Assembly (NCBI GenBank): GCA_030680745.1
Contig: JAUXUR010000026.1
Coordinates: forward strand, 1,899 to 65,898
Source of the DNA: Alphaproteobacteria bacterium
Lineage (GTDB): Bacteria > Pseudomonadota > Alphaproteobacteria > JAUXUR01
Length of the DNA stretch: 64,000 nucleotides
Reading direction: 5' to 3'
Of this stretch, positions 2,449-61,871 are shown one piece after another. The notes below the pieces were generated by a model. The model did no database searches and had not been told where the DNA came from. It saw only the letters and a program-made list of their open reading frames with translations. Within the stretch, counting starts at the first letter, position 1, and each line of letters opens with the position of its first letter. The translations under genes and the position numbers were made by a program.

Positions 2449-5400
2449 TTACTTCTTACTCCACCATCCCTTTTTAGGTGCAGCGGGTTTGTCTACAATC
2501 ATATTCAAATCTTTATTAGATTTAGGTGCAGGTTTTTCACTAGAACTACCAGTTGATGGTACAGTTTCCGATTGATAAACAGGTGATGAAATAATTTCTA
2601 CTTTACCAGCAGGTTTTGGAGGTCTTGAATCATCTCTTTTATTATCTCTTGGTTTTCTGTCTCGTGAATTTCTATCACCAGTTTTTCTATCGCCCGTATT
2701 TCTGTCACCTGTATTTCTATCTCTGGGCGTTCTTTTGGTATCACTTTTTGTATCACGACGTGTATCGGATTTAGCTTCTGTATCGATACGAGGTGTTTCT
2801 TGATTGATCCCTTGATCTTTTTGAGAAGGAATAGGGAAGGTACCCTCATCTTTAATCATAGGTGCAACTTGTTGAGGTGCTGTTCTTTCAGGCTGAATAT
2901 CCGCAACTTTAGTTTCTACAATTTTGTTTTCAACAAATTGATTTTGCGGTGGAATGTTTTCGCCTTTTTGCTCCATAAGATTTTGCTTAGGTTGACGTCT
3001 TGTGTCATTTGCATCTCTGGGTGGTCTCGTTCTATAAGGTGAGCGACGAAGATAGGTGCGTTCTCTAGGTTGACGTGGTTTTGCTTCAGTTGGTTGCCCT
3101 TCATTGGGCGCACTTATTTGTGGTGCTTGAGTTCCAGGTTCAATATTAGGGTTAATGTGTTTTGCAGCACGGGGTGGTGTAAAAACAACTTCATCCGTTA
3201 ATAGTAATTCTGAAGCTTGGGTCGCACCAGACTGACTTCCTGGGCCTGATAAATCAAAAAACTGTTGTTGGCCTGATTGGTTTCTATCATGGCTTCGAGG
3301 CTGACGTTGGTTGCGCGGATGATTTCTTGTTTGTTGACTAGGTTCAGATTCAAATCTAGATTTATTTTCAAGGGGCTGTCCTGAAGGAAGCAAAGCCTGT
3401 TTTTCTGAAATTGGTCCTGATGTTATATCGAAAGGTTGTGCAAAACCATGCATTGGTTGTTCGTCTGGTTGCCCCATTGGTTGCATTGGGTCAAATGGAG
3501 TGCGAGGATTTGCATTTCTGTCCCAGCGTTCATTACGATCGCCACCAAAACGTTTGTCTCTACGCCCTTTACGTGGATGATCAGGCTCTTTTTTGTGTAA
3601 ATGAGCTGGATGTGGTGGATGATGAGGTTGTTCCAATTCTGAATCGAACTCTAGTCTTGGTTGTTCCAATGTGACTGCATCCAATGCTTTGATAGCAGGT
3701 GCTGGTGGTGCAAGACTTTTGATGCGATTAATAGAATATTCGTAAGGCATCAATTCTTCTGTTACAAAGACAATTTTTTGACGATATACTTCTTCAATAC
3801 GCGCTAAAATATTGCGTTTTTCATTGAATATATAAAGTGCAACAGGTGCCGGTAAAATAACTTGCATTTCTTGGTTTGGTGCTTCAATAGCATCAGCTTC
3901 AATGGCACGTAAAATTTTAAGAGCACGCGCTTCAACGGATCGAATGGTGCCAACACCACCACAATGTTCACAATTTTGACTATTCATTTCAAGAACAGAC
4001 GGACGTAACCGTTGACGCGACATTTCCATAAGACCAAATTGACTTATACGACCAATTTGGATGCGCGCACGGTCAAATCGAACAGAATCTTTAAGTTTTT
4101 TCTCAACATTATGTTGATTTGCGTGTTCGCCCATATCGATGAAATCGATGACAATCAAGCCACCAAGATCTCGTAAGCGTAATTGGCGTGCAATTTCTTC
4201 CGCAGCTTCAAGATTTGTACGTAAAGCTGTTTCTTCAATGTTGCGTTCGCGTGTTGAGCGACCCGAATTGACGTCAATAGCAACAAGGGCTTCCGTTTGA
4301 TTAATAACAAGATAACCACCTGAAGGAAGTTGAACAATAGGCGTATCAATGGACGCAATTTGCTCTTCTATATGGTAATGGTGGAATAACGGTATCGTTT
4401 TATCTTTATAAAGCTGAATTTTTTTGGTGTGGGATGGGATCAAAAGACGCATGAAATTTCGAGCGTTTTTATAACCTTCATCACCTTCAACAATGATTTC
4501 ATCGACATCACGTGAATATAAATCGCGTAAAGCACGTCTAATAAGATCGCCTTCTTCAAACACAAGAGAAGGTGCTGTCGAATTAAGCGTTTGGTTGCGA
4601 ATATTTTCCCAAAGACGAATAAGTGCTTCAAAGTCACGTTTAATTTCAGACTTAGAACGGCCAGAACCAGCAGTTCTAACGATAACAGACATACCGTCTT
4701 CAACTTCTAAATCAGAAATAGCTTCTTTAAGTTTTTTGCGGTCTGATGGATCATTGATTTTACGCGAGATACCGCCACCGTCTTTATCAGTATTGGGCAT
4801 AAGAACACAATAACGGCCAGGTAACGAGATATAAGTTGTAAGGGCTGCACCCTTGTTGCCACGTTCTTCTTTTGTCACCTGAATCAGAAGAATTTGTCTT
4901 CTTTTGATAACTTCTTGAATACGATAACGTTTAAAAGCAGGGAGTTCTTTTCTTTCACGAGCTGCTGGCATATCTTCATGGTTCTGAAAAACTTCTTCAG
5001 AAACATTACTATCAAAACTCATTTCTGTGTTTTGAGCGTTCTCATCAGTGGTATTTTCATCATCTGATGCAACCACATTTTCAGAGGATGTGTCTATTGG
5101 TTCCGGTGAAAAAGCATCAATATCAAACTTTGCTTCTAAATCATGAAATGCATTTTCAATCGCTGATGTTGCTTCAACAATTTCAGGTTCTTCAATTTTA
5201 GGTGCGTCAAAGGTTGACGGTAGCACATCAGTTGTATCGTCTGTTAGATCTGTATTATCAACGTGACTTGGCTGCGCAGCCTCATTTGGGGTGACATTAA
5301 TAGGTCTTGGGTCATAAGGAGAACCTAATAGCTGCCCTTCAATTAAGCCCGTGTGTAATTCTTCAGTTGATCTGTCAGAAACTGGAATGCGATAATAATC

Positions 5401-10086: not shown

Positions 10087-10300
10087 AATCTACGGGACAA
10101 AAAATGAAATTCCTTCGGTTTCACCTCTCCCCTTGTGGGAGAGGTCGGCGCGCAGCGACGGGTGAGGGGTATCTAAAGCGTTTGCAAAGAGCAATACTAT
10201 CATGCCATAATTTAAGCATTGCCAAACAAATACTCACCTCTCCAAAATTGTAAAATACCCCTCACCCGCTCCTTTTTGTCGCGACCTCTCCCACAAGGGG
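10087..10300 (+). repeat. Palindromic MITE-like element, copy 1, left part (interrupted at 10300/10301)
   Basis: By eye roughly 95% identical to the reverse complement of 28637-28851. It begins AATCTACGGGACAAAAAATGAAATT and contains hairpin ends CACCTCTCCCCTTGTGGGAGAGGTCG ... CGACCTCTCCCACAAGGGG. Confidence 0.8.
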
Positions 10301-10643: not shown

Positions 10644-11826
10644 GGCGTTGTTGCATAAATTGTTTATTTTTGATTTTTCAATCTTTAAGTGTGTTCAAAA
10701 TGTAGAAGAGAGCACTTTTAAAATATAATCTTAAATTTACAAGGTGTTACGAACACAATTTTTTCGGTATAAACTTCAATTTCAACAAGGAGTTTTACCT
10801 ATGCCTAAGAAAGCCTATCGTGTTCGTAACTGGAAAGAGTATAACAAAGGTTTGATTAATCGGGGAAGCCTAACTTTTTGGTTTTCTGATGAAATACAAA
10901 AAAATTGGCAAAAAAGTGAAAATAGCACTGCACACGGAAATCAAAAATATTCAGATGCTATTATTTTATGTAGTTTGACTTTAAGACAATTATTTAGACT
11001 TCCTTTAAGAGCGACACAAGGTTTAATGGCATCTTTGGCAGAATTAGCTAAACTAGATGTCAACATCCCTGATTATTCGACATTATCTAGACGAAGCAAA
11101 ATCATAAAAGTTAATTTTGATATAAAGAAAAGTTTAAAAGCACGCCATATTCTAATTGATTCTACAGGTATTCGAGTTATTGGCGAAAGGGAATGGAAGA
11201 AATTACATCATGGAGAAAGTAGATATCAGCTTTGGCGAAAATTGCATATTGCAATGGATGCTGACACAAATGAAATACTTGCAGCTACTATGACAGAAAG
11301 TGTACGTCTTGATGGAAATTACTTACCTGGATTAATTGATAAAATTGACGGTCCAATTGATCAAATCACAGGAGATGGTGCTTATGACAAAAAAAATTGT
11401 TATCAGGCTGCTTATAAACGAGGTGCAAAAGCAGTTTTTCCTCCACAGCATGATGCCTGTGTGCAAAGAAACAAAATTAAAAAAGATCAAGCCTTAATGG
11501 CACGTGACGCAACAATCTTGTTTATAAACAATGGGGAGGACATGAAGACAAGACGAAAATTATGGAAAATAGAAAATAATTATCATCGTCGTTCTTTAGT
11601 TGAAACAATGATGTCACGTATGAAGTCCATATTTGGAGACGAAATGCGATCACGAACTACTGAAAATCAACATACTGACTTAATGATTCGTTGCAATATT
11701 ATTAATAAAATGAACCTACTAGGAATGCCAAAAAGTGAACGAATAGATTAAACTATCTAATCCTTGTTGAGAGTGACCCTCTTAATACTCCATATACCCA
11801 TAACTTAGGATTTATGCAACAACGCC
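10644..11826 (+). mobile_element. IS5-family, IS903-group insertion sequence (1183 bp), apparently intact
   Basis: 17-bp perfect terminal IRs GGCGTTGTTGCATAAAT. 9-bp direct repeat GATCAAGTC at 10635-10643 and 11827-11835. Single transposase ORF. Confidence 0.9.
10801..11751 (+). CDS. IS903-like DDE transposase
   Basis: MPKKAYRVRNWKEYNKGLINRGSLTFWF...YSDAIILCSLTLRQLFRLPLRATQG...DYSTLSRR...IDSTGI...GDGAYD...RRSLVET match the IS5/IS903 transposase layout. AAGGAG RBS precedes the ATG at 10801. Confidence 0.9.
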   Translation: MPKKAYRVRNWKEYNKGLINRGSLTFWFSDEIQKNWQKSENSTAHGNQKYSDAIILCSLTLRQLFRLPLRATQGLMASLAELAKLDVNIPDYSTLSRRSKIIKVNFDIKKSLKARHILIDSTGIRVIGEREWKKLHHGESRYQLWRKLHIAMDADTNEILAATMTESVRLDGNYLPGLIDKIDGPIDQITGDGAYDKKNCYQAAYKRGAKAVFPPQHDACVQRNKIKKDQALMARDATILFINNGEDMKTRRKLWKIENNYHRRSLVETMMSRMKSIFGDEMRSRTTENQHTDLMIRCNIINKMNLLGMPKSERID

Positions 11827-28505: not shown

Positions 28506-28851
28506 AATCTATGGGACAAAAAATGAAATTAAGCCCATTTTTAACTGTCCTGCTCTCACACTCCGCAACTTATTTCTAAGAAGTGAAAACAATTTTTTAC
28601 CAAAAGCCTTCCAAAAGAAGGGTTTTTTTCACCTCTCCCCTTGTGGGAGAGGTCGCGACCAAAGGGAGCGGGTGAGGGGTATTTTACAATTTTGGAGAGA
28701 TGAGTATTTGTTTGGCAATGCTTAGATTATGGCATGATGGTGTTGCTCTTTGTAAACGCTTTAGATACCCCTCACCCGTCGCTGCGCGCCGACCTCTCCC
28801 ACAAGGGGAGATGTAAAAACCGAAGCAATTTCATTTTTTGTTCCGTAGATT
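28506..28851. mobile_element. MITE-like element between convergent genes: 25-bp terminal inverted repeats enclosing copy 2 of the palindromic element
   Basis: AATCTATGGGACAAAAAATGAAATT (28506-28530) versus the reverse complement of 28827-28851 (AATCTACGGAACAAAAAATGAAATT). 28612-28851 is the inverted copy of 10087-10300 plus 11953-11987. Confidence 0.7.
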
Positions 28852-39713: not shown

Positions 39714-39836
39714 TATACCCAAACAATTTCAAAGTGTGGGTAGGAAAATGAGTAGTGAGACATGCGATGTGTATTCTTTATACATGAGCAATGCGAATCT
39801 CAAAATTTGACGACCTCCACAATTAGAAAGAGTTGG
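39714..39836 (+). repeat. ~123-bp palindromic-ended element, copy 1 (family also at 45312 and 50134)
   Basis: TATACCCAAACAATTTCAAAGTGTGGGTAGGAAAATGAGTAGTGAG...GCGAATCTCAAAATTTGACGACCTCCACAATTAGAAAGAG. It ends 8 nt before the ATG at 39841. Confidence 0.8.
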
Positions 39837-45311: not shown

Positions 45312-45434
45312 GTTACTCGAATTATTTCAAAATGTGGGTAGGAAAACGCGTGGTGAGCAAGCGGAATGTATTCTTCATACTTGAGCATTGCGAATCCCAA
45401 AGTCTGACGCCCTCCACAGTTTGAAAGAAGAAGA
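45312..45434 (+). repeat. ~123-bp palindromic-ended element, copy 2 (nuoA-nuoB spacer)
   Basis: GTTACTCGAATTATTTCAAAATGTGGGTAGGAAAACGCGTGGTGAG...GCGAATCCCAAAGTCTGACGCCCTCCACAGTTTGAAAGAAGAAGAG. It ends 4 nt before the nuoB ATG. Confidence 0.8.
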
Positions 45435-45438
45435 GTAA

Positions 45439-47797: not shown

Positions 47798-48384
47798 ATA
47801 TTCATAAATCAGAAGAATTTTCATTTTCGCCTGAAAATTTGAAACGTGCTCAAGAAATTATGACGCATTACCCTGAAGGACGTCAGCAAAGTGCGTTGCT
47901 TCCTTTATTGGATATAGCGCAACGTCAAAATGGTGGTTGGCTCTCGCGTTATGCACTTGATTATTTAGCGCAATTTTTGGGTATTGCAGCGATTCGTGTT
48001 TACGAAGTTGCTAGTTTTTATTCTATGTTTAATTTGAAGCCTGTTGGTCAACATTTAGTGCAAGTTTGTACGACGACACCTTGCTGGTTGCGTGGTTCTG
48101 ACTCGATTATGGATACATGTAAGTCAAAACTCGGTATTGGTTTGGGCGAAACAACGGCGGATAAACAATTTACCCTTGTAGAAGTTGAGTGTTTGGGTGC
48201 TTGCGTGAACGCACCACTAGTGCAAATCAACGATGATTATTACGAAGATTTAAATGCCGATCAAATGGCTAAAATTATCGATGATCTTAAAGCCGGTAAG
48301 AAAATAGAAATTGGGTCGCAATTGGGACGCAAAGGATCGGCGCCAGAGGGTGGACCACAAGTGTTATGCGAGATAGTGAAATGA
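47794..48384 (+). CDS. nuoE: NADH-quinone oxidoreductase subunit E
   Basis: 2Fe-2S ligand pattern [11 protein letters not shown]...[10 protein letters not shown]. Start overlaps the nuoD stop. Confidence 0.95.
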
Positions 48385-48825
48385 TACATGAATTATTTCA
48401 TCATTATTGCGACGCAGCAACTTTCCTTTTTCGTCATTGCGAGGCACGAAGTGACGCGGCAATCTTTTTATCGTTGACATCGCGTGCCCCTTCTTATCCG
48501 TCATTGCGAGGGACGAAGTCCCGCGGCAATCTCTCTGCAACAATTAGATCGCCACACCCCCTGAAGGGGGTTCGCGATGACGATGTTGGTAGAGCGGGGG
48601 GTCGCGATGGCGATGTGAGACGGACTCGTCGTTGCGAGGCACAAAGTGCCGTGGCAATCGTTTCTCTCTCGTCATTTCGAGCCAATTACATTACCTCGTC
48701 ATTGCGAGGGACGAAGTCCCGTGGCAATCTAATGTACGCAAACGATCATTTAAGATTGCCACGCAGCTTCGCTGCTCGCAATGACGAAGTGGTCAGGATA
48801 AATCAACAAATAAACGGGCTATCCC
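48385..48825. repeat. Cluster of REP-like hairpin units (35-37 bp, CGTCATTGCGAGG-GAC-GAA-GTC-CCGCGGCAATC) in both orientations, filling the nuoE-nuoF spacer
   Basis: Plus-orientation units at 48431-48465, 48498-48533, 48625-48660 and 48694-48730. Inverted units at 48546-48582 and 48753-48789. Partial units at 48401-48421, 48597-48613 and 48668-48683. Confidence 0.85.
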
Positions 48826-50103
48826 ATGCTTCAAGATAAAGATCGTATTTTTCAAAATCTGTATGGTCTCCATGATTGGCGCATAAAAGCGGCTCAATCG
48901 CGTGGTGCTTGGGTAGGCACGAAAGATCTTATCCTTAAAGGTCGTGATTGGATCATTGATGAAATGAAAAAATCGGGTCTACGTGGTCGGGGTGGCGCTG
49001 GTTTTCCAACAGGCATGAAATGGTCTTTTATGCCCAAAACAGAAGGTCCTAAACCCCATTATCTGGTTGTAAATGCAGATGAAAGTGAGCCTGGCACGTG
49101 TAAAGATCGTGATATTTTACGTCATGATCCGCATTTATTACTCGAGGGCTGTCTTTTAGCGGGTTTTGCGATGGGGGCACACACAGCCTATATTTATATT
49201 CGTGGTGAATTTTATAACGAGGCGAGTAATGTAGCGCAAGCCATTCAAGAAGCTTATGCCAATAATATGATTGGTAAAAATGCGTGTGGTTCTGGCTGGG
49301 ATTTCGATATTCGTTTGCATCGCGGGGCAGGGGCTTATATTTGTGGTGAAGAAACAGCTTTGCTTGAAAGTCTGGAAGGTAATAAAGGCCAACCGCGCAT
49401 GAAACCCCCATTTCCAGCGGGTGTTGGGCTTTATGGTTGCCCTACAACGATTAATAATGTTGAAACAATTGCGTCCGCACCCGATATTTTAAAACGTGGT
49501 GGTGCGTGGTTTTCTTCTATGGGACGACCTAATAATGTGGGCACCAAGCTTTTTTGTATCTCGGGCCATGTGAACAAACCTTGTAATGTTGAAGAAGAAA
49601 TGGGGATTCCGTTGAAGGAGCTCATTGAAAAACATGCAGGTGGTGTGCGCGGTGGCTGGGATAATTTATTGGCTATTATTCCCGGTGGGTCATCTGTGCC
49701 GCTTTTGCCAAAATCAATTTGCGATACCGTTTTGATGGATTTTGATGCGTTACGTGAAGTCAAATCAGGCCTTGGGACAGCTGGCGTTATCGTCATGGAT
49801 AAATCAACTGATCTTATCAAAGCGATTGCGCGTCTGTCGAAATTTTACAAACATGAAAGCTGTGGACAATGTACGCCTTGCCGTGAAGGGACAGGCTGGA
49901 TGTGGCGTGTCATGGAACGGATGGTTAAAGGTAATGCCCGCCTTGAAGAAATTGATGAATTGTTAGAGGTCACAACGCAGGTTGAAGGACATACAATTTG
50001 TGCTTTGGGTGATGCGGCCGCATGGCCTATACAGGGTTTAATGCGTCACTTTAGATATGTGGTTGAGGATCGAATCAAAAATGCAGGCTCAAAAGCTGCT
50101 TGA
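48826..50103 (+). CDS. nuoF: NADH-quinone oxidoreductase subunit F
   Basis: [13 protein letters not shown] (FMN/NADH site) and [12 protein letters not shown] (N3 cluster). Confidence 0.95.
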
Positions 50104-50133
50104 AATCAATAGGGTAATGATATTTTTTGGTCA

Positions 50134-50257
50134 GTTACCCAAACTATTTCGAAGTGTGGGTAGGAAAATGAGTGGTGAGGCCAACGGAGTGTATTCTTCA
50201 ATCACGCGCATGGCGAATCCCGAATTTGACGACCTCCACAATTTGAAAGAGGAAGGG
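50134..50257 (+). repeat. ~123-bp palindromic-ended element, copy 3 (nuoF-nuoG spacer)
   Basis: GTTACCCAAACTATTTCGAAGTGTGGGTAGGAAAATGAGTGGTGAG...GCGAATCCCGAATTTGACGACCTCCACAATTTGAAAGAGGAAGGG. It ends 4 nt before the nuoG ATG. Confidence 0.8.
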
Positions 50258-50261
50258 TAAT

Positions 50262-52340
50262 ATGCCTAAATTAACGATTGATGGAACAGAGATTGAGGTC
50301 CAAGCTGGAACGACAGTTTTTCAGGCTTGCCAACAAGCAGGTGTTGAGGTACCTCATTTTTGTTTTCATGAGCGATTAGCGATTGCTGGTAATTGCCGTA
50401 TGTGTTTGGTGGAGCTTGAAAAAGCGCCGAAACCGATTGCTTCTTGTGCTTATCCCACGGCCGAGGGAATGGTTATTAAAACGAATACACCGATGGTTGA
50501 AAAAGCGCGTAAAGGCGTTATGGAATTTTTACTTATTAATCATCCACTTGATTGTCCAATTTGTGACCAAGGTGGCGAATGCGATTTGCAAGATGAAGCC
50601 ATGGCCTATGGTAAAGATCGCAGTCGCTACGAAGAAAACCGCCGTGCTGTGACTGACAAATATATGGGGCCACTCGTTAAAACAACGATGACGCGTTGCA
50701 TTCATTGCACACGTTGTGTGCGATTTATTACGGACGTTGCTGGTGTTGAAGAATTGGGTGCCACAGGTCGTGGCGAAAATATGGAAATCACCACTTATGT
50801 TGAAAAAGCATTAAGTTCAGAATTATCTGGTAATATCATTGATTTATGTCCCGTGGGTGCATTGACGTCTAAACCTTATGAATTTAAAGCTCGTTCTTGG
50901 GAACTTAAAAAGACTGAATCGATCGATGTTTTTGACGCGTTAGGCACTAATATTTGTATCAATACACGTGGGCCTGAAGTTATGCGCATTTTGCCGCGTT
51001 TGAATGAAGATATTAATGAAGAATGGATGGCTGATAAAGCCCGCTTCGCCTATGATGGTCTTAAAAGACAACGTTTGGATCGTCCTTATATCCGTCAAAA
51101 TGGTAAATTAAAAGAATGTTCGTGGGATGCGGCATTACAATTTGTTGCAACAAAAATTGAAACGGCAAAACCCAATGAAATGGCGGCCATTGCAGGCGAT
51201 TTATGCGATGTTGAATCCATGTTTGCGCTGAAAGAATTGATGCATGCGTTGGATGTTCAAAATCTTGATTGCCGTCAAGATGCAGCTTTTATTCCACATG
51301 ATACGCGTGCGCATTATTTATTTAATACCTCAATTGCTGGTATAGAAAAAGCTGATATCTGTTTGATTATAGGCGCGAATCTTCGTTGGGAAGCACCGTT
51401 ACTCAATGCGCGTTTACGCAAAACCTATCTTCAATCGAAATTAAAAGTTGGGATGATTGGTGAAGAACTCGATTTGACTTACCCTTATACCCAAATCGGC
51501 GCAGGGCCTGAAGCTATTGATGCATTGCTAAATAATACACATTCTTTTGCTGCATTATTAAAAAATGCGAAGAATCCAATGATTATTATCGGGTCGGCAT
51601 TGATGACGCGTGCTGATGCACCTGCTTTGTTCCAAAAAATTCAACAACTTATTGATACTTATGGGATTATTCGTGACGATTGGAATGGGTATAATCTGCT
51701 CCATAAAGCAGCGTCCCGCGTCGGTGGGTTAGATATTGGTTTTCTACCAACGAAGAGTGCAATGGGGACGGAGCAAATTATTGAGGCTGCTCAAAAAGGA
51801 AGTTTAAAACTTCTCTATTTACTGGGTGCTGATGAAATACGTGTGAAACCACACCCCAATTGTTGTGTTGTGTATCAAGGACATCATGGCGATATGGGTG
51901 CTCAAATCGCTGATGTTATTTTACCGGGTGCTGCTTATTCTGAAAAATCAGGAATGTATGTGAATATTGAAGGTCGTGCACAACGCGCTGAAATGGCGTT
52001 GTTTCCACCCCATTTGGCAAAAGAAGATTGGAAGATTATTAGGGCGATTTCAGGCGCGATCGGCAAAGCATTGCCTTATAATTCGCTTGAAGAATTGCGT
52101 TATGAATTGACTGAAAAATATCCACATTTTGGTCATATTGACCAGCTCGCTCAAAATAAATGGCAAAAAATTGACATTGCGTCATCGTCAAAAATTTCGG
52201 ATAAACCATTTTTGAATGTTATTCAAAATTATTATATGACTGATGTTATTTCGCGCGCATCCCTGACTATGGCGAAATGTACAAAAGATATTCTGAATAT
52301 TCAAGAACAACACGAAAATAAAAAGGTGGCCAATGCTTGA
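50262..52340 (+). CDS. nuoG: NADH-quinone oxidoreductase subunit G
   Basis: N-terminal 2Fe-2S/4Fe-4S Cys patterns ([37 protein letters not shown]). 692 aa. Confidence 0.95.
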
Positions 52341-53385
52341 ATTATGGACTCATTTTATTGCACCTGGGCTACAAATTCTGCTCTATATCATGTGCATTAT
52401 TGTGCCACTCATTTTATCAGTTGCGTATTTAACGTATGTTGAACGTAAAGTCATAGGCGCCATGCAATTACGAAAAGGGCCCAATGTTGTTGGACCTTTT
52501 GGATTATTGCAGCCTTTCGCCGATGCTTTTAAGTTGTTGTTTAAAGAGCCTATTATTCCGTCAGGATCAAGCAAGTTCTTGTTTTTACTGGCGCCTGTTT
52601 TAACCTTTTCGCTGAGTTTTGCGGCCTGGGCTGTGATTCCTTTTGAATCGGGCGTGGTTCTTGCGAATATTAATGTAGGTATCCTTTATCTTTTTGCGCT
52701 TTCATCCTTGGGCGTTTATGGCGTGATTATTGCCGGTTGGGCGAGTAATTCACGTTATGCTTTTTTAGGTGCGCTTCGTTCTGCAGCCCAAATGGTGTCT
52801 TATGAGGTCTCAATTGGTTTTGTGTTGGTCACTGTTTTATTGCTTTCTGGATCGCTCAATTTATCAGATGTGGTCATGGCGCAAAAAGGCCTATGGTTTT
52901 GTGTGCCTTTATTTCCTATGTTCGTCATTTTTATTGTGTCAGCACTTGCTGAAACGAATCGTTCGCCTTTTGATTTAGCGGAAGGTGAATCTGAAATTGT
53001 GGCAGGGTATTTCGTTGAATATTCATCCATGAGCTTTGCGCTGTTTTACTTGGGTGAATATGCCAATATGATCTTAATGAGCGCTATGGCCGCGTTATTA
53101 TTCTTAGGCGGTTGGTTGCCACCTATTGATATGGTGCCCTTTACATGGATTCCAGGCCCTATTTGGTTTTGTTTAAAAATCGCTTTTGTGCTTTTCATCT
53201 TTTTGTGGGTGAGGGCGACGTTCCCCCGTTATCGTTATGATCAATTGATGCGTTTGGGTTGGAAAGTCTTTTTACCTTTTTCGCTTGTTTGGGTTATTTT
53301 GACGGCTGGCTTTGTCGTTGTTAAAAATGAATTAAATTCAAGTGCTCCTAAAGTTCACGCCTTATCATCGAAGGAAACGTCATGA
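52333..53385 (+). CDS. nuoH: NADH-quinone oxidoreductase subunit H
   Basis: Polytopic membrane protein with ERK..G.MQ.R.GPN and AETNR.PFDL.E.ESE motifs. Overlaps the nuoG stop. Confidence 0.95.
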
Positions 53386-53870
53386 AAAAATTGACGCGTA
53401 CACTTAAAAGTTTTTTGTTGGTTGAGCTCGCTTCAGGGCTTTGGCTGACACTGAAATATATGTTTAAGAAAAAAGTGACATTGAATTATCCTTTTGAAAA
53501 AGGACCCTTAAGCCCAAGATTTCGGGGTGAGCACGCATTAAGACGTTATGAAAATGGCGAGGAACGCTGTATTGCGTGTAAATTATGCGAAGCCGCCTGT
53601 CCCGCGCAAGCCATCACCATTGAAGCTGAAGCACGTGAAGATGGTAGCCGTCGTACAACGCGTTATGACATTGATATGACCAAATGTATTTATTGTGGCT
53701 ATTGCCAGGAAGCATGCCCCGTGGACGCCATTGTGCAAGGTCCTAATTTTGAATTTACAGTCGAAACGCGTGAAGAGCTTTTTTATGATAAGGATAAATT
53801 ACTCTCCAATGGTGATCGTTGGGAAGCTGAAATTCAACGTAATTTAGAGCAGGATGCGAAGTATAGGTAA
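53382..53870 (+). CDS. nuoI: NADH-quinone oxidoreductase subunit I
   Basis: Two CxxCxxCxxxCP ferredoxin motifs ([24 protein letters not shown]). ATGA overlap with nuoH. Confidence 0.95.
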
Positions 53871-53990
53871 TAAGCGTTGGCAATATACTGTATGCTTGCG
53901 TTATTCTAATTGTTTGTAACGTGAATTTGGAAATTTAAAAGCATCTACATTCAAGCACAACCATTTGAATTAAAAAGAAAAATAAAGAGG

Positions 53991-54113
53991 TCCGTCGTTG
54001 CGAACCCCCCACTTTTTTTTTAGGGGGGGGTGTGGCAATCCAGTCCTAAAATCAACTTTTATAAGGCTATTTTCTGGATTGCTTCTTCGCCTTCAGCTCA
54101 TCGCAACGACGGA
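53991..54113. repeat. Inverted pair of REP-like units downstream of nuoI
   Basis: TCCGTCGTTGCGAACCCCCCAC-T9-AGGGGGGGTGTGGCAATCCAG (53991-54042) faces CTGGATTGCTTCTTCGCCTTCAGCTCATCGCAACGACGGA (54074-54113). Same family as the nuoE-nuoF cluster. Confidence 0.75.
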
Positions 54114-54281
54114 AACCTTAGGTTTCCTAATGCAGGCATCATCGAGTTCGCCTTTATAATAAATGGTTCATGACTTTGAAAAAAGACCATTGTATATTCA
54201 AAGTTTCTTGATTATAACGCATTCTTAACATATTTTGAGCACTCAAAGCTCAAATTTGCAATAATTTTTTGGAAAATTACA

Positions 54282-56051
54282 ATGAAACAAATTATTGTTA
54301 TGCTGTTTTTTCTTATCGCAGGATTAGAAATTAGAAATAACCAAGTCTATGCAGCAGGAAATGAACAAGAGTCAGCAATTGTTGCTATAAATGAAGACCC
54401 CCAATCTGAATTAGTAGTGGCAGAAAAAACCCCAATCGATAAACTTTCGAGTATTTTTCGTATATCACAAAATACGAGACCATTTTTAACACCCACTGTT
54501 TCCAAAGATGAAATCTTTGAAATTTATCATGCAATTGCTAATTCATTTCAATATTTAACAACAGAAGATAAACCCTGGGATATACCGATTCCCGAATTAT
54601 ATTATTTAGGTATAGAGCTTGTTTATACAATAACTGCAAAAGATTACCGTAAAAGAGAGGCAATTCAAAAAGCAAAAAATTTCTTGGAAACGGCAAAAAA
54701 TGGGAATTTAATTACCTATCGTTGGTTTTTGAAATTTTCAGGGCTTTGTGCAGCGATTGCGACCATAGGCCGTCAGAAGATCGATCTTGAATCTGATTCA
54801 AATAATATTTATTCATATCAACAAGCTTTGATGAATGTATTTGTCGCATCGAATTACGACCCACAAGCTTATTTTGATGCAATTGATACAATTGGATCAC
54901 CAATCACCCATGAAATTGGGTCGCTCAATGCGATGGCTGAACTTTTTCCTGAAATAGTGATTCTACCTTATCCTTTTGATTTAAGCGATACTGATATTTT
55001 TTTGAATTTTCCAGGTAAAACAAAACATGTATGGTTTGCAGGTGTTGCAAATAAAGAAACTACAGCAGATGGTCAGAGAAAGGATCCTCATGATTTTTTC
55101 TATCATGACATACTTCATTTAGCTATTATAAGACAAGCTTTATCAACAAATAATATTGCTTTTTTTTATGCGCAATATTTACAATATGTAAAAGATTTTT
55201 CTTACGATTATTTTGAAAAAAATCAGCAAGAACGTGTTCAACTTTTTTTTGAAGCGTTAGAATTGACCCAAAATTTTTTGGAGGAATTTCTTAAAGATCC
55301 TAATCAGGGCGAAGATACAAAAAGAATGTATAGTTTTTTTAGCTTTGCAATTTTTCATGAATTTTCTATGAGTTTAATTGGCCGATTGCATTTAATAATA
55401 AATCCTGATGCTCTTTTGAATATTTTTAAAATAGCTATTAATCCTATGCTTTCTTCTGATTATTATGGACCGCTTCTTCCTGAAAAAATTAAAACAGCGT
55501 TAAAATTAGAAATTTTTCAACCTGTTGAGACATTGGCTGTAAATTTTTTGAATGATCTGCTTTCTTATACTAATGCACATCATTTTAGTTTATTTGAGGA
55601 GCTTAAAAAATATACTAAAAGGTCGTTTTTACCATTTCCTTTAATCAATTATTATGCTGTAGAAAATTTTATTGTTTGGAATCCATCAATTTATTATACC
55701 GACTATTTTGAAAAAACTGTTAAAAAACATTGTCAAGAAAATAATATATCTATTGGTGAAATGGATGCATTTACTTTTTTTTATAATCGTTTAAGTGAGT
55801 TTGATTCTGGTAATAAAATTCCAAGGACGATGGCATTTTTTTACAATTTTAAAGGAAATCCTTTCAAATTAGATTGGGAGCCAATCATTTATTCAATGGA
55901 TGTTTTTATACATAAGGATTTATCTTTTACTAAATCAAAAGAAGAGATTGCTCAAAAGTTCAAAAATGATTTGCCAGCAAGACAAGATGGTCATCCATTG
56001 CCCGTTTTGCGTTATTATGGCGCTGATATGGAACCCGTTATTGTTGAGTAG
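54282..56051 (+). CDS. Hypothetical exported 589-aa protein (orphan cargo gene)
   Basis: Signal peptide MKQIIVMLFFLIAGLEIRNNQVYA, AT-rich, no family recognised. Contains a His/Asp-rich motif DPHDFFYHDILH. Confidence 0.7.
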   Translation: MKQIIVMLFFLIAGLEIRNNQVYAAGNEQESAIVAINEDPQSELVVAEKTPIDKLSSIFRISQNTRPFLTPTVSKDEIFEIYHAIANSFQYLTTEDKPWDIPIPELYYLGIELVYTITAKDYRKREAIQKAKNFLETAKNGNLITYRWFLKFSGLCAAIATIGRQKIDLESDSNNIYSYQQALMNVFVASNYDPQAYFDAIDTIGSPITHEIGSLNAMAELFPEIVILPYPFDLSDTDIFLNFPGKTKHVWFAGVANKETTADGQRKDPHDFFYHDILHLAIIRQALSTNNIAFFYAQYLQYVKDFSYDYFEKNQQERVQLFFEALELTQNFLEEFLKDPNQGEDTKRMYSFFSFAIFHEFSMSLIGRLHLIINPDALLNIFKIAINPMLSSDYYGPLLPEKIKTALKLEIFQPVETLAVNFLNDLLSYTNAHHFSLFEELKKYTKRSFLPFPLINYYAVENFIVWNPSIYYTDYFEKTVKKHCQENNISIGEMDAFTFFYNRLSEFDSGNKIPRTMAFFYNFKGNPFKLDWEPIIYSMDVFIHKDLSFTKSKEEIAQKFKNDLPARQDGHPLPVLRYYGADMEPVIVE

Positions 56052-56065
56052 GCGCATTAGGTGAG

Positions 56066-56198
56066 GTGGTTCAACTTTAAATTCATTGTTGAAACACGTG
56101 AAGATCTTTTCTATGATAAGGATAAATTATTATCCAATGGCGATCGTTGGGAAGCTGAAATTCAACGTAATTTAGAACAAGATACTAAGTATAGTTAG
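56066..56198 (+). pseudogene. nuoI: Displaced copy of the last ~130 nt of nuoI (fragment 1)
   Basis: Aligns to 53739-53870. Translation ...[35 protein letters not shown] versus nuoI ...[35 protein letters not shown]. No 5' part and no start codon. Confidence 0.85.
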
Positions 56199-56302
56199 AT
56201 ATTTATTTAAATGTAGGGTATTTTTATTGACTTAATTTTAAATATAATATAAATTTCATTTTTCGTAAAGTATGTTTATGTAAACAAATATGGAGATTAA
56301 AA

Positions 56303-56602
56303 ATGTTAAAATTAATAAGATTGTCGTTTTTACTTATGGTGTTGTTTTCAACATCTAGTCAAGCTGACGTTTTTTGCTATGTTAAATATAATTCAACATT
56401 TTATGGTGTTCAGGTGGATGAATCAGAGAAGACTATTGCTGATTTAAAGGTGAAAATAGCTGAACGTTTAGGTATAAATGTTGAAGATTTTGATCTTTGT
56501 GATAATGGCAGTACTACTCGCCCTGACAAAATGTTCAATGACAATGATTCAATGCATGATATTAGGCTAGCTACTAGAATAACAGTAAGACTAAGGAAAT
56601 AA
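56303..56602 (+). CDS. Small secreted protein with a ubiquitin-like (beta-grasp) sequence pattern
   Basis: Signal peptide [21 protein letters not shown] and GGAGA RBS. The 77-aa mature part aligns by eye with ubiquitin (YVK / [19 protein letters not shown] / ITVRLRK versus FVK / [22 protein letters not shown] / LHLVLRLRGG). Confidence 0.6.
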
Positions 56603-56690
56603 TCTTTCAATTGCAATGTTGACGTTTAAGTCCGTCCTTTTAAGGGGGGCGGACAAACAAAACATAAATAAGATAAATAAATATCAGCTG

Positions 56691-56941
56691 ATTGAAGCCG
56701 AAGCACGTGAAGACGTTTGTCATCGTACAACGTGTTATGGCATTGATATGACAAAATGTATTTATTGTAGCTATTGCCAAGAAGCTTGTTCCGTTGATGC
56801 CATTGTTGAAGGTCCAAATTTGAATTTATGCTTGAAACCCCCGAAGTGTTTTTTTATGATAAGCATAAATTATTATCCAATGGCGATCGCTGGGAAGCTG
56901 AAATTCACCATAATTTAGAACAGAATGCGAAGTATAAATAG
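56691..56941 (+). pseudogene. nuoI: Displaced, frameshifted copy of the last ~240 nt of nuoI (fragment 2)
   Basis: Aligns to 53629-53870. [43 protein letters not shown]..., then indels. The tail ...GDRWEAEI is recoverable only in another frame. Ends at TAG, as the parent ends at TAA. Confidence 0.85.
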
Positions 56942-57002
56942 TTCTTTTAAATTGTTGAATTTATGTCTAGAATAAAGTACTAAAATCTAAGGGTTGTAAA
57001 AA

Positions 57003-57308
57003 ATGCATAAAAAAACTATAGTAAATACAACAAAATCTCCTATGAAATATCGCGGAAATATTGTTTTATTGGTGTTGTTTTTGATTTTGTGGTTTCCAAT
57101 AGCCTTGGTGCTTCTTTTTAAAAATGCATATATTCCCAAGAAAAATAAAATTATTTATTTATCATATCATGGAAATTATATTTGGCTCTTTTTTTGGGCT
57201 ATTTTTTTCTTTCCAATTGCAATGATTTTAATTTTTATTATTGGATTTGATCAAGTGGAAGAGGAATTTTATGAGTCTGTTGAACATACTACTGTTCATA
57301 GAGAGTAA
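57003..57308 (+). CDS. Small membrane protein (two TM helices)
   Basis: 101 aa with two long hydrophobic segments (IVLLVLFLILWFPIALVLLF, IWLFFWAIFFFPIAMILIFIIGF). No family recognised. Confidence 0.5.
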   Translation: MHKKTIVNTTKSPMKYRGNIVLLVLFLILWFPIALVLLFKNAYIPKKNKIIYLSYHGNYIWLFFWAIFFFPIAMILIFIIGFDQVEEEFYESVEHTTVHRE

Positions 57309-57316
57309 ATTTAAAA

Positions 57317-58183
57317 TTAATATATATTACAAATTTCGGTAAATTTTTTAAAATAAAGTGGATCGCAGTCATCTTCTAATGCCCAAGCCCAGGCTAAAAT
57401 TGCTTGAACAAAATTCCATTGGGCAATGCGTTGAGAAGGTGTTTTAAGAATATGTGCAAAAACCTGGATGCGTTTTTCAATAATTTCTTTGGCATTACGT
57501 ATCGTTAATAAATCAGGAATGGGGTTGCGGATAAAAGCTGCAATCTCGTATGCAGGGTCACCAATGATGCCTTTGGGATCAATTGCTATCCAATCATTGG
57601 AATGAGACAAAATATTATCATGGTGTAAATCACCATGAAGCAAAACGTTTTTGGGGGATGTTTCTAAAAGATGATTCTTTAAATCACGTGCTTTTTGTAA
57701 ATATTCGGAGGGGATATTGAGATCTTGATCTAAAAGAGCAAGCCAATCTGAAATATGTGGGAATTGATTTTCAATCGGCAAAGGCGCTTTGTGGAGTTTT
57801 GTGATTAGATCTGATGCAATATAAATAGCTTCTTCATCACGAAGATTAAAATAGTTTTTGAGTGATTGTCCAGGTATTGCACGTTCTATAAGTAAAGCAT
57901 CATCATTTTCGGCATAAAATTTAACACAAGAATGTCCGTTAAAAGCCCTAAGAGCATCTGCTTCTTTTCTTAAAGATTCAATATCAGGACTTACTTTTAA
58001 AACGACTGGTTTTGTATTTTGAACTGCCGAGAGGACATAATTGTAAGTGAGGTTTTCAAAGGGTTTAAGTTGCGTTAGGTGCCAATCTTTAGCATATTCT
58101 TGAATAAGCTTTGGTAAAGAATGAAGCCAGTTTTTACCTTTATCGCCATAAAGATTGATTATGTTTTGGTTGAAGTGTTGCAT
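57317..58183 (-). CDS. Aminoglycoside/hydroxyurea-resistance kinase family protein (APH(6)/StrB-like)
   Basis: Kinase-like catalytic loop LLHGDLHHDNIL, then IAIDPKGIIGDPAYEIA. Overall length and layout resemble StrB. Confidence 0.75.
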   Translation of the reverse strand: MQHFNQNIINLYGDKGKNWLHSLPKLIQEYAKDWHLTQLKPFENLTYNYVLSAVQNTKPVVLKVSPDIESLRKEADALRAFNGHSCVKFYAENDDALLIERAIPGQSLKNYFNLRDEEAIYIASDLITKLHKAPLPIENQFPHISDWLALLDQDLNIPSEYLQKARDLKNHLLETSPKNVLLHGDLHHDNILSHSNDWIAIDPKGIIGDPAYEIAAFIRNPIPDLLTIRNAKEIIEKRIQVFAHILKTPSQRIAQWNFVQAILAWAWALEDDCDPLYFKKFTEICNIY

Positions 58184-58248
58184 TGGGCAATTCTAATATA
58201 AAATACACAATATTTAAATACTCACGCAACACTAACCAATTGTAAAAA

Positions 58249-58524
58249 TTAATCGGTTTGGCGCATTCCTTGCTTGGTATTTTCTTTAAAAACATCACTA
58301 TCTTTAATTTGATTTAATTCGACATGTGATGTTTCCATTGAGCTCATTATTTCATCTATATCGGCGCGCATTTTTTGAAGTTTTATTTGCATGTCTTTCA
58401 TTTTCTGACATGCTGTATCCATTCTTGTTTTTATATTGTGATCTTTTGTGTCTGCATTCACCTGAGTAGCAGAAATGAAAATTATTGAAGATAGAAATAA
58501 AGTTTTTTTAAAGGTAGTTTTCAT
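58249..58524 (-). CDS. Small secreted coiled-coil protein
   Basis: Signal peptide MKTTFKKTLFLSSIIFISATQVNA. 91 aa, no family recognised. Confidence 0.5.
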   Translation of the reverse strand: MKTTFKKTLFLSSIIFISATQVNADTKDHNIKTRMDTACQKMKDMQIKLQKMRADIDEIMSSMETSHVELNQIKDSDVFKENTKQGMRQTD

Positions 58525-58894
58525 TTTTTTTCCTTACTAAACATCTTGACTAAGCTTTCATATTGATCCCTAGTCAATTGATTTCCCTTAATTATAGAGC
58601 AACATATCTGCATATTAATTGCAATAAAAATGTGTTTTAAATAGGTGAATTGCATTTCATTGAAATTTGGTGTGTATCAAAAAAGAAACAAGCTTTGCTG
58701 AGGTTGATTTTATTGGATTTTTTATAGCAATAAATATTGGAATGATTAATTTTGGATAAAAATTTTCCAAATGCTAGGCGTTTGCCTGGATCTACGTATG
58801 AAGCTTTGCTTCAACGAGTCCAGGAAAACAAAGGAGTGTGGACAAATTTCTAGGATGAAAAAAAATTGTTCCGTAGATTGTAGACAATTAAATG

Positions 58895-59308
58895 CTACTG
58901 AACTTTAAGACCATCAGCATCGTGAACTTCAATTTTTTCAATGACATCAGAATTTTTGCTTGCATAGACTACACGCGCTGTAATATATCCACGATTGTTT
59001 GATAAGGCACCTTCTACAGGTGTGCCTGCAACTTCCCAAAGCCCTAAAGTCATAACATCAAGTGCACCATGGCCTGCGGCACGAACATAGTTAAAGCCAC
59101 TTTTGCGTGCTTTTGCACGATAGGTTTCAGTATATTTACCATTTTCTTCTGTATGTTTATCAAGAATTTCCATACCTAGTGAAAGATAGCATCCTCTGGA
59201 ATGACATTTTCTGACGTCGCTAACTGCTACGCCGTCGTTTGATGCTGCTTTATAAACTGAACAGCTGCTTATAAAAAGGGCCAATGCTACATAACTTAGC
59301 TTGTACAT
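58895..59308 (-). CDS. Putative lipoprotein
   Basis: Lipobox-like LALFISSC at the N-terminus. 137 aa, no family recognised. Confidence 0.6.
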   Translation of the reverse strand: MYKLSYVALALFISSCSVYKAASNDGVAVSDVRKCHSRGCYLSLGMEILDKHTEENGKYTETYRAKARKSGFNYVRAAGHGALDVMTLGLWEVAGTPVEGALSNNRGYITARVVYASKNSDVIEKIEVHDADGLKVQ

Positions 59309-59489: not shown

Positions 59490-59595
59490 TATAGTCGATA
59501 GACATTGGAAGTATACATCGTCACGCCTTATGCATGTATATACGTACACACTTCGCTTGTTGTTCCTTGTCTACTTCTCAAGTCTATCGACTATA
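59490..59595 (+). repeat. ~106-bp palindromic-ended element, copy 1 (upstream of the DUF2157 gene)
   Basis: TATAGTCGATAGAC...GTCTATCGACTATA perfect 14-bp terminal inverted repeats. Roughly 85-90% identical by eye to 61760-61865. Confidence 0.8.
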
Positions 59596-59635
59596 ATTTA
59601 ATATTGTTGATCTATTCATTCGTTGAGAGGCGAAA

Positions 59636-60664: not shown

Positions 60665-61871
60665 AATGAATGGGCAAGATTATTTAGATTATTTGCATGA
60701 TCGTCAATTGGTTGATGAACGTGCGTTAGGTACCATAAAAAAATACATGATTAATAATGCGAAGCAACCTGGGCTGCCATTTTATTTCCATCTTTTAGCC
60801 GGTGTTGGAACATTGATTTCGACATTTTGTCTTTACTCAGTTTTAAATCTTTTTGGATTTATAAGTTTTTTCAATACAGAAGGTTTTCTAGGTTGGGGGA
60901 TTTCTTTTATCGTTTTGGCTATATTGATTTATTTTCAATTTAAAAGCAATAAAAGCCTTGTACAGCAAAGTTTTTTGATTCAGTTTTCTTTTGCATTGAT
61001 GGTCGTCGGAAAAGTTTTTATTATAATTTACACCCTTTATAATCTTCAAAATTACTTTAAATTTCATAGTACTTGGGTCTATTCAGCAATTCTTTTTTTG
61101 TTGACGGGACTTACTTTTTTTCTTTACAAGGTAACAGCAGAACGCTTTTTGGGGTGTTTTTTTCTTTTTCTTTCCATTATTTACAATATTACTGAAACAC
61201 CATTTTTTCAGCCAGATAATAATCTTGTCTTAAATATTTACATGTTGCTGCAAGTTGTTTTGGCGAGTGTTTTATTTACACATTCGTTTGTCAAAAACGC
61301 TTTTATTACTATCGCTTATGCGCTTGTTTTGTCTGTTGCTGTGGAAATTGTTTTTTTTGATTTAACAATTGCCCCGTGGATTCTTGGTAGAGATTTTGGG
61401 TTAATATATGTGCAATATGGTTTTGCGCTTTTACTAATTTGGTCTATGTTTTGGGCATCTGGAGCACCTAATATCCGCGCATGTTTTAAAAACATCCATT
61501 TGATTTTGGCATCGTTACTTGTAGTTTTGTTGTCATATTTGACAGCACCCGGTATTATTTTTTCAATCTTTTTGATTGTTCTGGGATATGCATGTCAGCG
61601 GCGGTTTTTATGGTTATTGGGTGTATTTCTAATGCCAATTTACCTTTTCTTTTATTATTACGATTTGCAAGTTACCCTTCTTGAAAAATCAATTATTATG
61701 TTCTCGAGCGGCCTTATTCTTTTGATTGGTGCTGCATATATTCGTATTTGTAAATTAGATATAGCCAATAGTCATTGGAAGGATACATCGTCACGCCTTG
61801 CTCATGTAGACAAGAATACACTTCACTTGTTGTTCCTTGTCTACTTCTCAAGTCTATCGACTATAATATAA
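60654..61871 (+). CDS. DUF4401-type polytopic membrane protein (C-terminal 37 codons supplied by a repeat element)
   Basis: Overlaps the preceding gene by 11 nt. Multi-TM. Positioned between DUF2157 and GDYXXLXY genes as in the conserved trio. Confidence 0.65.
   Translation: MMHRMNGQDYLDYLHDRQLVDERALGTIKKYMINNAKQPGLPFYFHLLAGVGTLISTFCLYSVLNLFGFISFFNTEGFLGWGISFIVLAILIYFQFKSNKSLVQQSFLIQFSFALMVVGKVFIIIYTLYNLQNYFKFHSTWVYSAILFLLTGLTFFLYKVTAERFLGCFFLFLSIIYNITETPFFQPDNNLVLNIYMLLQVVLASVLFTHSFVKNAFITIAYALVLSVAVEIVFFDLTIAPWILGRDFGLIYVQYGFALLLIWSMFWASGAPNIRACFKNIHLILASLLVVLLSYLTAPGIIFSIFLIVLGYACQRRFLWLLGVFLMPIYLFFYYYDLQVTLLEKSIIMFSSGLILLIGAAYIRICKLDIANSHWKDTSSRLAHVDKNTLHLLFLVYFSSLSTII
61760..61865 (+). 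repeat. ~106-bp palindromic-ended element, copy 2 (inside the 3' end of the DUF4401 ORF)
   Basis: TATAGCCAATAGTCATTGGAAGGATACATCGTCACGCCTTG...CTTCTCAAGTCTATCGACTATA. The ORF stop at 61869-61871 lies 4 nt beyond the element. Confidence 0.8.

Follow-up and report, generated by a model that had tools for sequence, protein, structure and literature searches.

We analysed a 64,000-nt stretch of DNA (the window) from contig JAUXUR010000026.1 of the alphaproteobacterial metagenome-assembled genome (MAG) GCA_030680745.1. The genes nuoA-nuoI lie on its + strand, and the last nuo gene, nuoI (53382-53870), is followed by two displaced copies of its own 3' end, termed frag1 and frag2, which alternate with unrelated cargo genes. 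The reading we favour, with moderate confidence, is that small secreted-protein genes have been added at the nuoI end, most likely by homologous recombination between related symbiont strains and with no dedicated mobile element. It builds on the anatomy of the repeats, the presence or absence of the orf99 module between them, the neutral decay of frag2, the non-neutral history of frag1, the recombination mosaic at the locus and the lack of an integrase in the available sequence; from these we infer a mechanism based on one-sided homology and an order of events.

Anatomy of nuoI and its displaced 3' ends

Intact nuoI encodes 162 aa with both 4Fe-4S motifs (from the list of open reading frames (ORFs), with Pfam Fer4 families on the relatives' gene calls). 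The two 3'-end copies downstream of it, first noticed in a sequence-only reading of this DNA, were recovered by a direct-repeat search and by self-BLAST. The proximal copy, frag1 (56061-56198, + strand), is a 45-codon open frame that begins with GTG directly past an in-frame stop. Its sequence copies ~133 nt from the nuoI 3' terminus, with homology starting at ~56066-56073; in local alignments the copied part of the gene is its last ~126-140 nt, from ~53731-53745 (56073-56197 vs. 53745-53869: 86.4% identity over 125 nt, E 5e-36). The distal copy, frag2 (56691-56941, + strand), repeats the last ~250 nt (53619-53870 in local alignments; 56691-56936 vs. 53619-53865: 84.6% over 247 nt, E 6e-73), so that the repeats start at unequal points of nuoI (53619 vs. 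~53731-53745). It is a frameshifted pseudogene piece, called as a 100-aa ORF with a weak Fer4 match in Logan gene calls; the frame damage and CP-to-CS change reported earlier were both seen, as a 1-nt deletion and one of many replacements. Both fragments are in register with the nuoI frame and end with TAG, where nuoI ends with TAA. The earlier observation that similarity stops at the stop codon in all three copies also held, as the 100 nt past each of the three stops show 36-38% mutual identity, which is the chance level. An identical 35-nt run shared by nuoI and frag1 (53814-53848 = 56142-56176) was seen in the window only. No further gene-fragment repeat was found in the 64-kb window by the repeat search or self-BLAST.

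The order nuoI-orf589-frag1-orf99-frag2 and the AT-rich cargo (26-34% GC vs. 40-45% in nuo) are as the sequence-only reading described them. All parts lie on the + strand. The nuoI stop is followed by an 18-nt tail (53871-53888, beginning TAAGCGTTGGCAATATA) that is present in 6/6 working nuoI alleles and not after the fragments. Next come intergenic spacer IG1 (53889-54281), which is linked to orf589, and orf589 itself (54282-56051), the cargo of module A. Past frag1, spacer IG2 (56199-56302) bears no relation to the sequence past nuoI or past frag2 and leads to orf99 (56303-56602), the cargo of module B; IG3 (56603-56690), with a GC hairpin inside, separates orf99 from frag2. IG2, orf99, IG3 and one repeat unit form a 743-nt module (56199-56941) equal to the frag1-frag2 spacing. 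Beyond frag2 lie IG4 and orf101 (56942-57308), the latter encoding a small membrane protein (57003-57308). The genes orf589 and orf99 stop 14-88 nt ahead of the following repeat.

The sequence is MAG-derived and misjoins classically occur at repeats, so that an assembly or binning artefact, in which a collapsed strain mixture produces false repeats, was considered, as it had been in the sequence-only reading. An independent assembly of SRR13727517 (Logan contigs) matches 56147-58831 with 100% identity; its contigs break nowhere but at the 35-nt run common to nuoI and frag1, ending exactly within it, as expected of a k-mer assembler at a true repeat. A different MAG, GCA_030696155.1 (loci L001/L129; ~92% DNA identity), has the same order with both fragments, and a related layout is found in two ENA assemblies (L132/L133). 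With independent contigs and a second MAG ~8% diverged in agreement, the artefact is extremely improbable and for practical purposes refuted.

The arrangement appears rare. A second nuoI fragment was present in 0 of ~115 other alphaproteobacterial nuoI loci (by-product loci, among the matches listed; no aimed search was made), and nuoJ directly follows nuoI in 74 of 80 genome loci among the matches listed in a scan with NuoI. The matches listed are alphaproteobacteria 75-85% identical in NuoI, of no use for close synteny but serving as a control. Unrelated marine contigs were the only matches when metagenomes were scanned with a degenerate DNA pattern of the nuoI end.

Haplotypes, mosaicism and history of the copies

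The relatives compared here are MAG fragments or metagenome contigs, i.e., partial genomes. Two of them, L132 (7.4 kb) and L133 from a second sample, were reached via an orf101 cluster member and lack the 743-nt module: their order is IG1, an orf589 homologue, a single nuoI fragment (F), IG4 and orf101. Positions 1-2119 of L132 align to window 54074-56204 (through frag1), and positions 1987-2500 align to 56815-57328 (frag2 through orf101). Fragment F combines the left junction of frag1 (orf589 stop, 14 nt, fragment start), which is shared by three lineages (window, L001, and L132), with the right flank of frag2. From these hybrid flanks it follows that the orf99 unit is present or absent exactly between nuoI-derived repeats, a polymorphism of the kind that recombination within the repeats would predict. 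Thus, the search for empty-site alleles among relatives, proposed earlier, yielded one with precise boundaries for the orf99 module. The lineage of the window and L001 may have gained the unit by insertion, or L132 may have lost it through frag1 x frag2 recombination, and parsimony does not choose between the two. This bears on the earlier claim of serial insertion at the nuoI terminus: the evidence supports the fragments as footprints of DNA added by recombination inside the nuoI 3' end with nuoI left intact, and a strict series at the terminus is not established, since entry of the orf99 module into a fragment that was already displaced, or its loss from L132, would account for the data equally well.

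The absence of nuoJ-N, which the sequence-only reading had linked to the insertions, proved to be a separate matter. A tblastn search with NuoJ-N from a related MAG found none of these genes in the whole 64-kb window, in agreement with that reading. However, nuoJ follows nuoI in 0 of 6 contigs of the clade, which makes the break in the nuo operon past nuoI an old one. Beyond the shared 18 nt, the six contigs fall into three contexts: IG1 and orf589 (window, L001, and L002); a miniature inverted-repeat transposable element (MITE), an IS4-like insertion sequence (IS) and a HAD-like gene (L003/L004); and a rearranged spacer with an orf589 homologue in L124, a further relative carrying nuoI. The NuoI protein is 100% identical in L001-L004 despite 8-10% difference in DNA. 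We concluded that the missing nuoJ-N is no part of the fragment-forming events and that the site past nuoI is a general point of plasticity. The possibility that orf101 is a nuoJ/K remnant was considered and received no support from tblastn or Pfam.

Comparison of the window with L001 revealed blocks with 0 mismatches (53901-54200, within IG1; 55100-55900; 56800-57200) alternating with blocks of 10-25% divergence (54201-54700; 55901-56600). Synonymous divergence (dS) is 0.29-0.49 in nuoF-nuoI and 0.05-0.10 in the genes from APH to GDYXXLXY. Judged by these alignments, the region is a pervasive recombination mosaic, with homologous recombination between lineages active at the locus. The nuo stretch with raised dS (nuoF-nuoI) spans 48826-53729; a more distant lineage seems to be the source of this segment, whose import ends inside nuoI. 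The dense mismatches in nuoI end at 53729, beside the left edge of the frag1 repeat (~53731-53745), and the coincidence of a recombination break at 53730 with the repeat edge is only suggestive.

We next consider how the copies diverged. A synonymous excess is found when the fragments are compared with working nuoI, and the sequence-only reading took it as a sign of divergence within a working gene. This comparison is indecisive, because whatever the model, synonymous changes are all that a working copy tolerates. Comparison of the proximal fragments with each other does support that conclusion: those of the window, L001, and L132 differ mutually by 14-15 synonymous vs. 6-7 nonsynonymous changes, with dN/dS ~0.1 among the three and neutrality rejected at P ≤ 0.0004 even at kappa 8, on codon counts that are small. 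Therefore, much of their divergence arose in working nuoI alleles. In frag2, codons absent from all working alleles show 3 synonymous vs. 9-10 nonsynonymous changes, plus the frameshift, which supports the view that frag2 decays neutrally and that the distal copy is probably the older one. The three proximal fragments nevertheless each carry replacements at residues invariant in 111 NuoI orthologues (E124K, E132D/K, L140I, A159T, and R162S); E124K and T126I, at the left edge, are common to all three, and the interior differs. Taken together, these patterns point to an old proximal junction and to an interior that was taken at least twice from working nuoI alleles, decaying after each copying. 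Within one genome, the fragment and the working end are as different as between genomes (proportion of synonymous differences 0.43-0.52); simple conversion from the present resident gene is therefore insufficient, and exchange between haplotypes explains the pattern. In the tree, both fragments fall outside the clade that the sampled working alleles form, and their TAG stop is also that of an outgroup.

The synonymous bias could have another source, namely that frag1 has been kept as a small gene for the NuoI C-terminal tail (44-45 aa), with translation coupled to that of orf589 and purifying selection of its own, and that frag2 is a redundant decaying copy. The frame is uninterrupted in the window, L001, and L132/L133 and begins with GTG right past the stop, the one indel among versions is a multiple of three, and the copy adjoining orf589 is alone preserved; the low dN/dS among the three versions would fit as well. 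We nevertheless regard a selected small gene as distinctly unlikely: its N-terminus varies (VRWF/VSVL/VWV), positions invariant in NuoI are among those substituted, a convincing ribosome-binding site is lacking, it was called by no gene caller in any source, and re-templating from working alleles explains the bias equally. The protein collection does not contain the frag1 ORFs.

Local events only, in which part of nuoI, its end, was duplicated in tandem and then decayed while unrelated genes turned over between the copies, with no imported end, are less probable still. The neutral decay of frag2 is what such a history predicts, and the outgroup-like TAG stops and outside branching of the fragments agree with it. 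However, a tandem duplication should copy downstream sequence too, and because nothing alike is found past the three stops, where three unrelated cargo genes lie, it is disfavoured. The strong synonymous bias among proximal fragments and the presence or absence of the orf99 module exactly between repeats also argue against it. Of the simple duplication with decay that the sequence-only reading had named as an alternative, the neutral decay is seen in frag2 alone.

Cargo genes and dispersed repeats

The orf589 product has no Pfam match, and its five homologues (47-100% identical) form a small, clade-restricted family confined to these MAGs. The earlier description of it as exported rests on a signal-peptide-like N-terminus read by eye. 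Its AlphaFold2 model is unusable (pLDDT 51), and comparison showed that the protein is no paralogue of the 896-aa Sel1 protein of the window. Homologues adjoin nuoI in L124, lie between gpsA and a rubrerythrin gene in L122 and beside an aminotransferase gene in L123, and in L121 adjoin rplKAJL-rpoB with no fragment past the gene. The C-terminal tail is kept in every homologue. An extension of frag1 upstream to the start point of frag2, with the orf589 tail derived from nuoI, was considered and rejected: the similarity is weak and matched by 46 of 500 shuffles, and the tail is also kept in homologues far from nuoI. Compared with L001, the first ~140 codons of orf589 (54201-54700) and the last ~50 (55901-56051) are 10-24% divergent, and the middle 800 nt are nearly identical with a handful of mismatches, which points to allelic mosaicism inside the gene.

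The fast-evolving orf99 gene was found in the window and L001 only, with 65% amino-acid identity and dN/dS 0.84. Its product has a signal peptide, and its model (pLDDT 62) is a beta-grasp for which the top Foldseek matches are nearly all ubiquitin, ISG15 or SUMO (E ~5e-3); a moderate-confidence model and structural matches thus back the label "ubiquitin-like" given to it earlier. We consider orf99 a candidate secreted eukaryote-like effector that may evolve almost neutrally or adaptively. A 90%-identical copy of orf101 in L125 adjoins plsY/dprA, with no fragment there; of RecA and genes for DNA uptake or transfer, this dprA was the only one seen. Sel1, LRR, TPR and patatin-like genes are spread across the window, which suggests an intracellular lifestyle.

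A sigma-70-like motif (TTGAAA-N17-TATGAT; TCGAAA in the working gene) lies ~80-110 nt before the stop in each nuoI-end copy (53761-53789, 56089-56117, and 56832-56860). This putative promoter could drive the downstream cargo; the overall count of promoter-like motifs is not above that in shuffles. No Rfam family matched within 53000-59000.

Several dispersed repeats occur in the region. A MITE-like palindrome, whose terminal inverted repeat is TCCGTCGTTGCGA and which has a C6-T9-G8 hairpin inside, is located in IG1 (53990-54115), as well as past nuoI in L003/L004, and an inverted copy is present in L124 (2128-2299). Four related copies (48430-48790) make up a GC-rich pseudo-ORF (48366-48839) between nuoE and nuoF. 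In L004, an IS4/IS5-like IS (DDE_Tnp_1; ~2503-3739) lies directly past nuoI. MITEs with its terminal repeats (TCAATCTACGGGACAA) are found as two full copies in L001 (13945-14222 and 17976-18253) flanking APH-orf91-orf781, and the window has one truncated copy (58746-58893). The 279-nt direct repeat around APH-orf91-orf781 in L001, considered as a second case of gene-end duplication, is this MITE. A ~120-nt repeat (81-83% identity) occurs in three intergenic spacers (39716-39832, 45312-45438, and 50134-50260), two of them within the nuo operon (nuoA/nuoB and nuoF/nuoG). The window also contains a 94%-identical pair of 215-nt inverted repeats 18 kb apart (10087-10300 and 28637-28851) and, ahead of both the DUF2157 gene and the GDYXXLXY gene, a 112-nt repeat with 87.5% identity (59490-59601 and 61760-61871), which is also present in L125 (8757-8861).

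Mechanism and comparison with known systems

In the mechanism we propose, the nuoI stop codon would be the edge of a conserved core operon, at which nuoI abuts a region of fast-changing effector-like genes. A donor piece from a related chromosome would begin inside nuoI and end just past that lineage's downstream gene. It could enter as a circle through a single crossover of the Campbell type, or by homology-facilitated joining, and because homology exists on one side only, integration would be additive: nuoI would stay intact and its previous 3' end would be left behind as a direct repeat. At least two such additions would be needed, one anchored in the last ~140 nt of nuoI (module A: IG1 and orf589) and one in the last ~250 nt (module B: orf99). 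The duplicated anchor indeed flanks the insert, and its length differs between the events (~140 vs. ~250 nt). The repeats could then become substrates for RecA-type recombination, by which modules would be lost or gained between haplotypes and the proximal fragment re-templated from working nuoI, to decay after every such copying. A dedicated recombinase would not be involved.

The sequence-only reading had seen no recombinase, and Pfam searches agree: no tyrosine or serine recombinase was found among window ORFs of at least 90 aa, among the cargo genes or in the relatives' annotated contigs. The sole transposase in the window is an IS5-like DDE gene (10744-11751), 43 kb upstream of the locus. 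This evidence bears on the view that two integrase-borne islands or prophages left the fragments as attR-type scars; these elements would have entered the nuoI 3' end with a replacement end and since decayed to single genes or used an integrase encoded elsewhere. The layout does resemble attL/attR topology, with direct repeats, an intact target gene and the older scar distal; the 35-nt identical stretch in nuoI and frag1 could be a core, three lineages have the junction between orf589 and the fragment in common, and housekeeping-gene ends are known targets (PMC4701971). We consider such islands unlikely, however. [quoted passage not shown] In relatives, the homologues of orf589 and orf101 belong to the chromosome and have unrelated neighbourhoods, and the nuoI-end sequence was not found in viral contigs in two viral scans. 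The dS of orf589 between the window and L132 (0.63) exceeds that of the flanking resident genes orf101 and APH (0.17-0.23), which makes it less likely that module A spread recently as an element.

Several points weigh against our own reading, the addition of genes by homologous recombination. Only parts of the genomes are at hand, and an integrase acting in trans may be possible. Neither a donor haplotype (nuoI directly followed by IG2-orf99 or IG4-orf101) nor a circular intermediate was found, although no aimed search was made, and an empty site for module A was not found among the relatives' partial contigs. L121 has IG1-orf589 without a fragment; its contig starts inside IG1, and by orf589 dS it nests among fragment-bearing lineages, so that its state may be a secondary loss. 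The 14-88 nt gaps from cargo genes to the next repeat are tidier than random DNA ends predict. Four window-specific differences at 53837-53858 blur the break at 53730, and a single-change-point fit places it at 53858. As ~130 kb of sequence from the clade showed no further duplicated gene end, the process is not demonstrably general. To our knowledge, duplication is also not the typical documented result of homology-facilitated illegitimate recombination.

If genes were added in this way, accessory genes of the host-interaction type can be stacked beside an essential gene, which remains unharmed, without mobile-element machinery, and the sole requirement would be strain homology that ends at the gene's stop codon. 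The locus would also be a datable record, with a neutral distal scar, a proximal scar repeatedly re-copied from working alleles and a natural presence/absence polymorphism. A bolder and doubtful extension is that the nuoI-derived repeats turn single effector-like genes into recombinase-free cassettes, in which homologous recombination between the repeats would excise a circle able to re-enter any related genome at the nuoI end. The proximal fragment would then act periodically as the end of working nuoI, or else be a 44-45-aa mini-gene under selection and coupled to orf589. Such an arrangement would amount to a homology-only cassette system on an essential respiratory gene in an intracellular-type bacterium. 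True cassette cycling or a functional mini-ORF would mean a new route of gene flow among uncultured symbionts; otherwise, the locus is a clean but ordinary recombination footprint.

Among known systems, the 3' end of icd is the integration target of phage 21 and e14. Streptococcal ICEs, like streptococcal integrative and mobilizable elements (IMEs), integrate at the 3' ends of rpsI, rplL, and guaA with a replacement end (PMC4701971, PMC5357655). As at nuoI, prophages, ICEs and IMEs in gene 3' ends leave the target intact and the displaced 3' end as a direct repeat beyond the insert, and their scars can stack. Unlike them, the nuoI locus has no mobility genes, its repeats of 130-250 nt are of unequal extent, and the inserts are single genes of chromosomal type. 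We know of no case in which nuoI is the target of such 3'-end integration. Islands in tRNA or tmRNA genes with tandem accretion, the analogy drawn in the sequence-only reading, likewise stack modules serially between copies of the target 3' end; here the target is a protein-coding respiratory gene with no tyrosine integrase beside an att site. That analogy fails on its defining feature, the integrase, and homologues of orf589 and orf101 occur in ordinary chromosomal contexts. Integron gene cassettes were also considered and rejected, as the repeats are copies of coding sequence with no attC-like imperfect palindromes and there is no IntI integrase.

The orphan C-terminal modules past rhs/cdiA toxin genes are similar in forming an array of 3' fragments behind a main gene with which they share a homologous stretch, each with its own downstream partner gene, and probably arise by recombination in that conserved stretch. 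There, the repeat precedes a variable toxin tip; here, it is the conserved end itself as far as the stop codon, and what varies lies in separate genes. Campbell-type integration or homology-facilitated illegitimate recombination of DNA with homology on one side, a documented process (PMC3240628), is like the nuoI case in being additive, with one homologous anchor that is duplicated and no dedicated recombinase. Merodiploids generated by transformation have been described as well (PMC3784515). Integration of this type is expected where strain homology stops abruptly. Unlike the nuoI locus, one-sided integration and merodiploids are known chiefly from laboratory crosses. We know of no described natural multi-step case at the end of an essential gene in an uncultured symbiont-like bacterium. 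The locus is apparently a gene-end duplication from additive integration, at a respiratory gene, with a haplotype series and without a recombinase.

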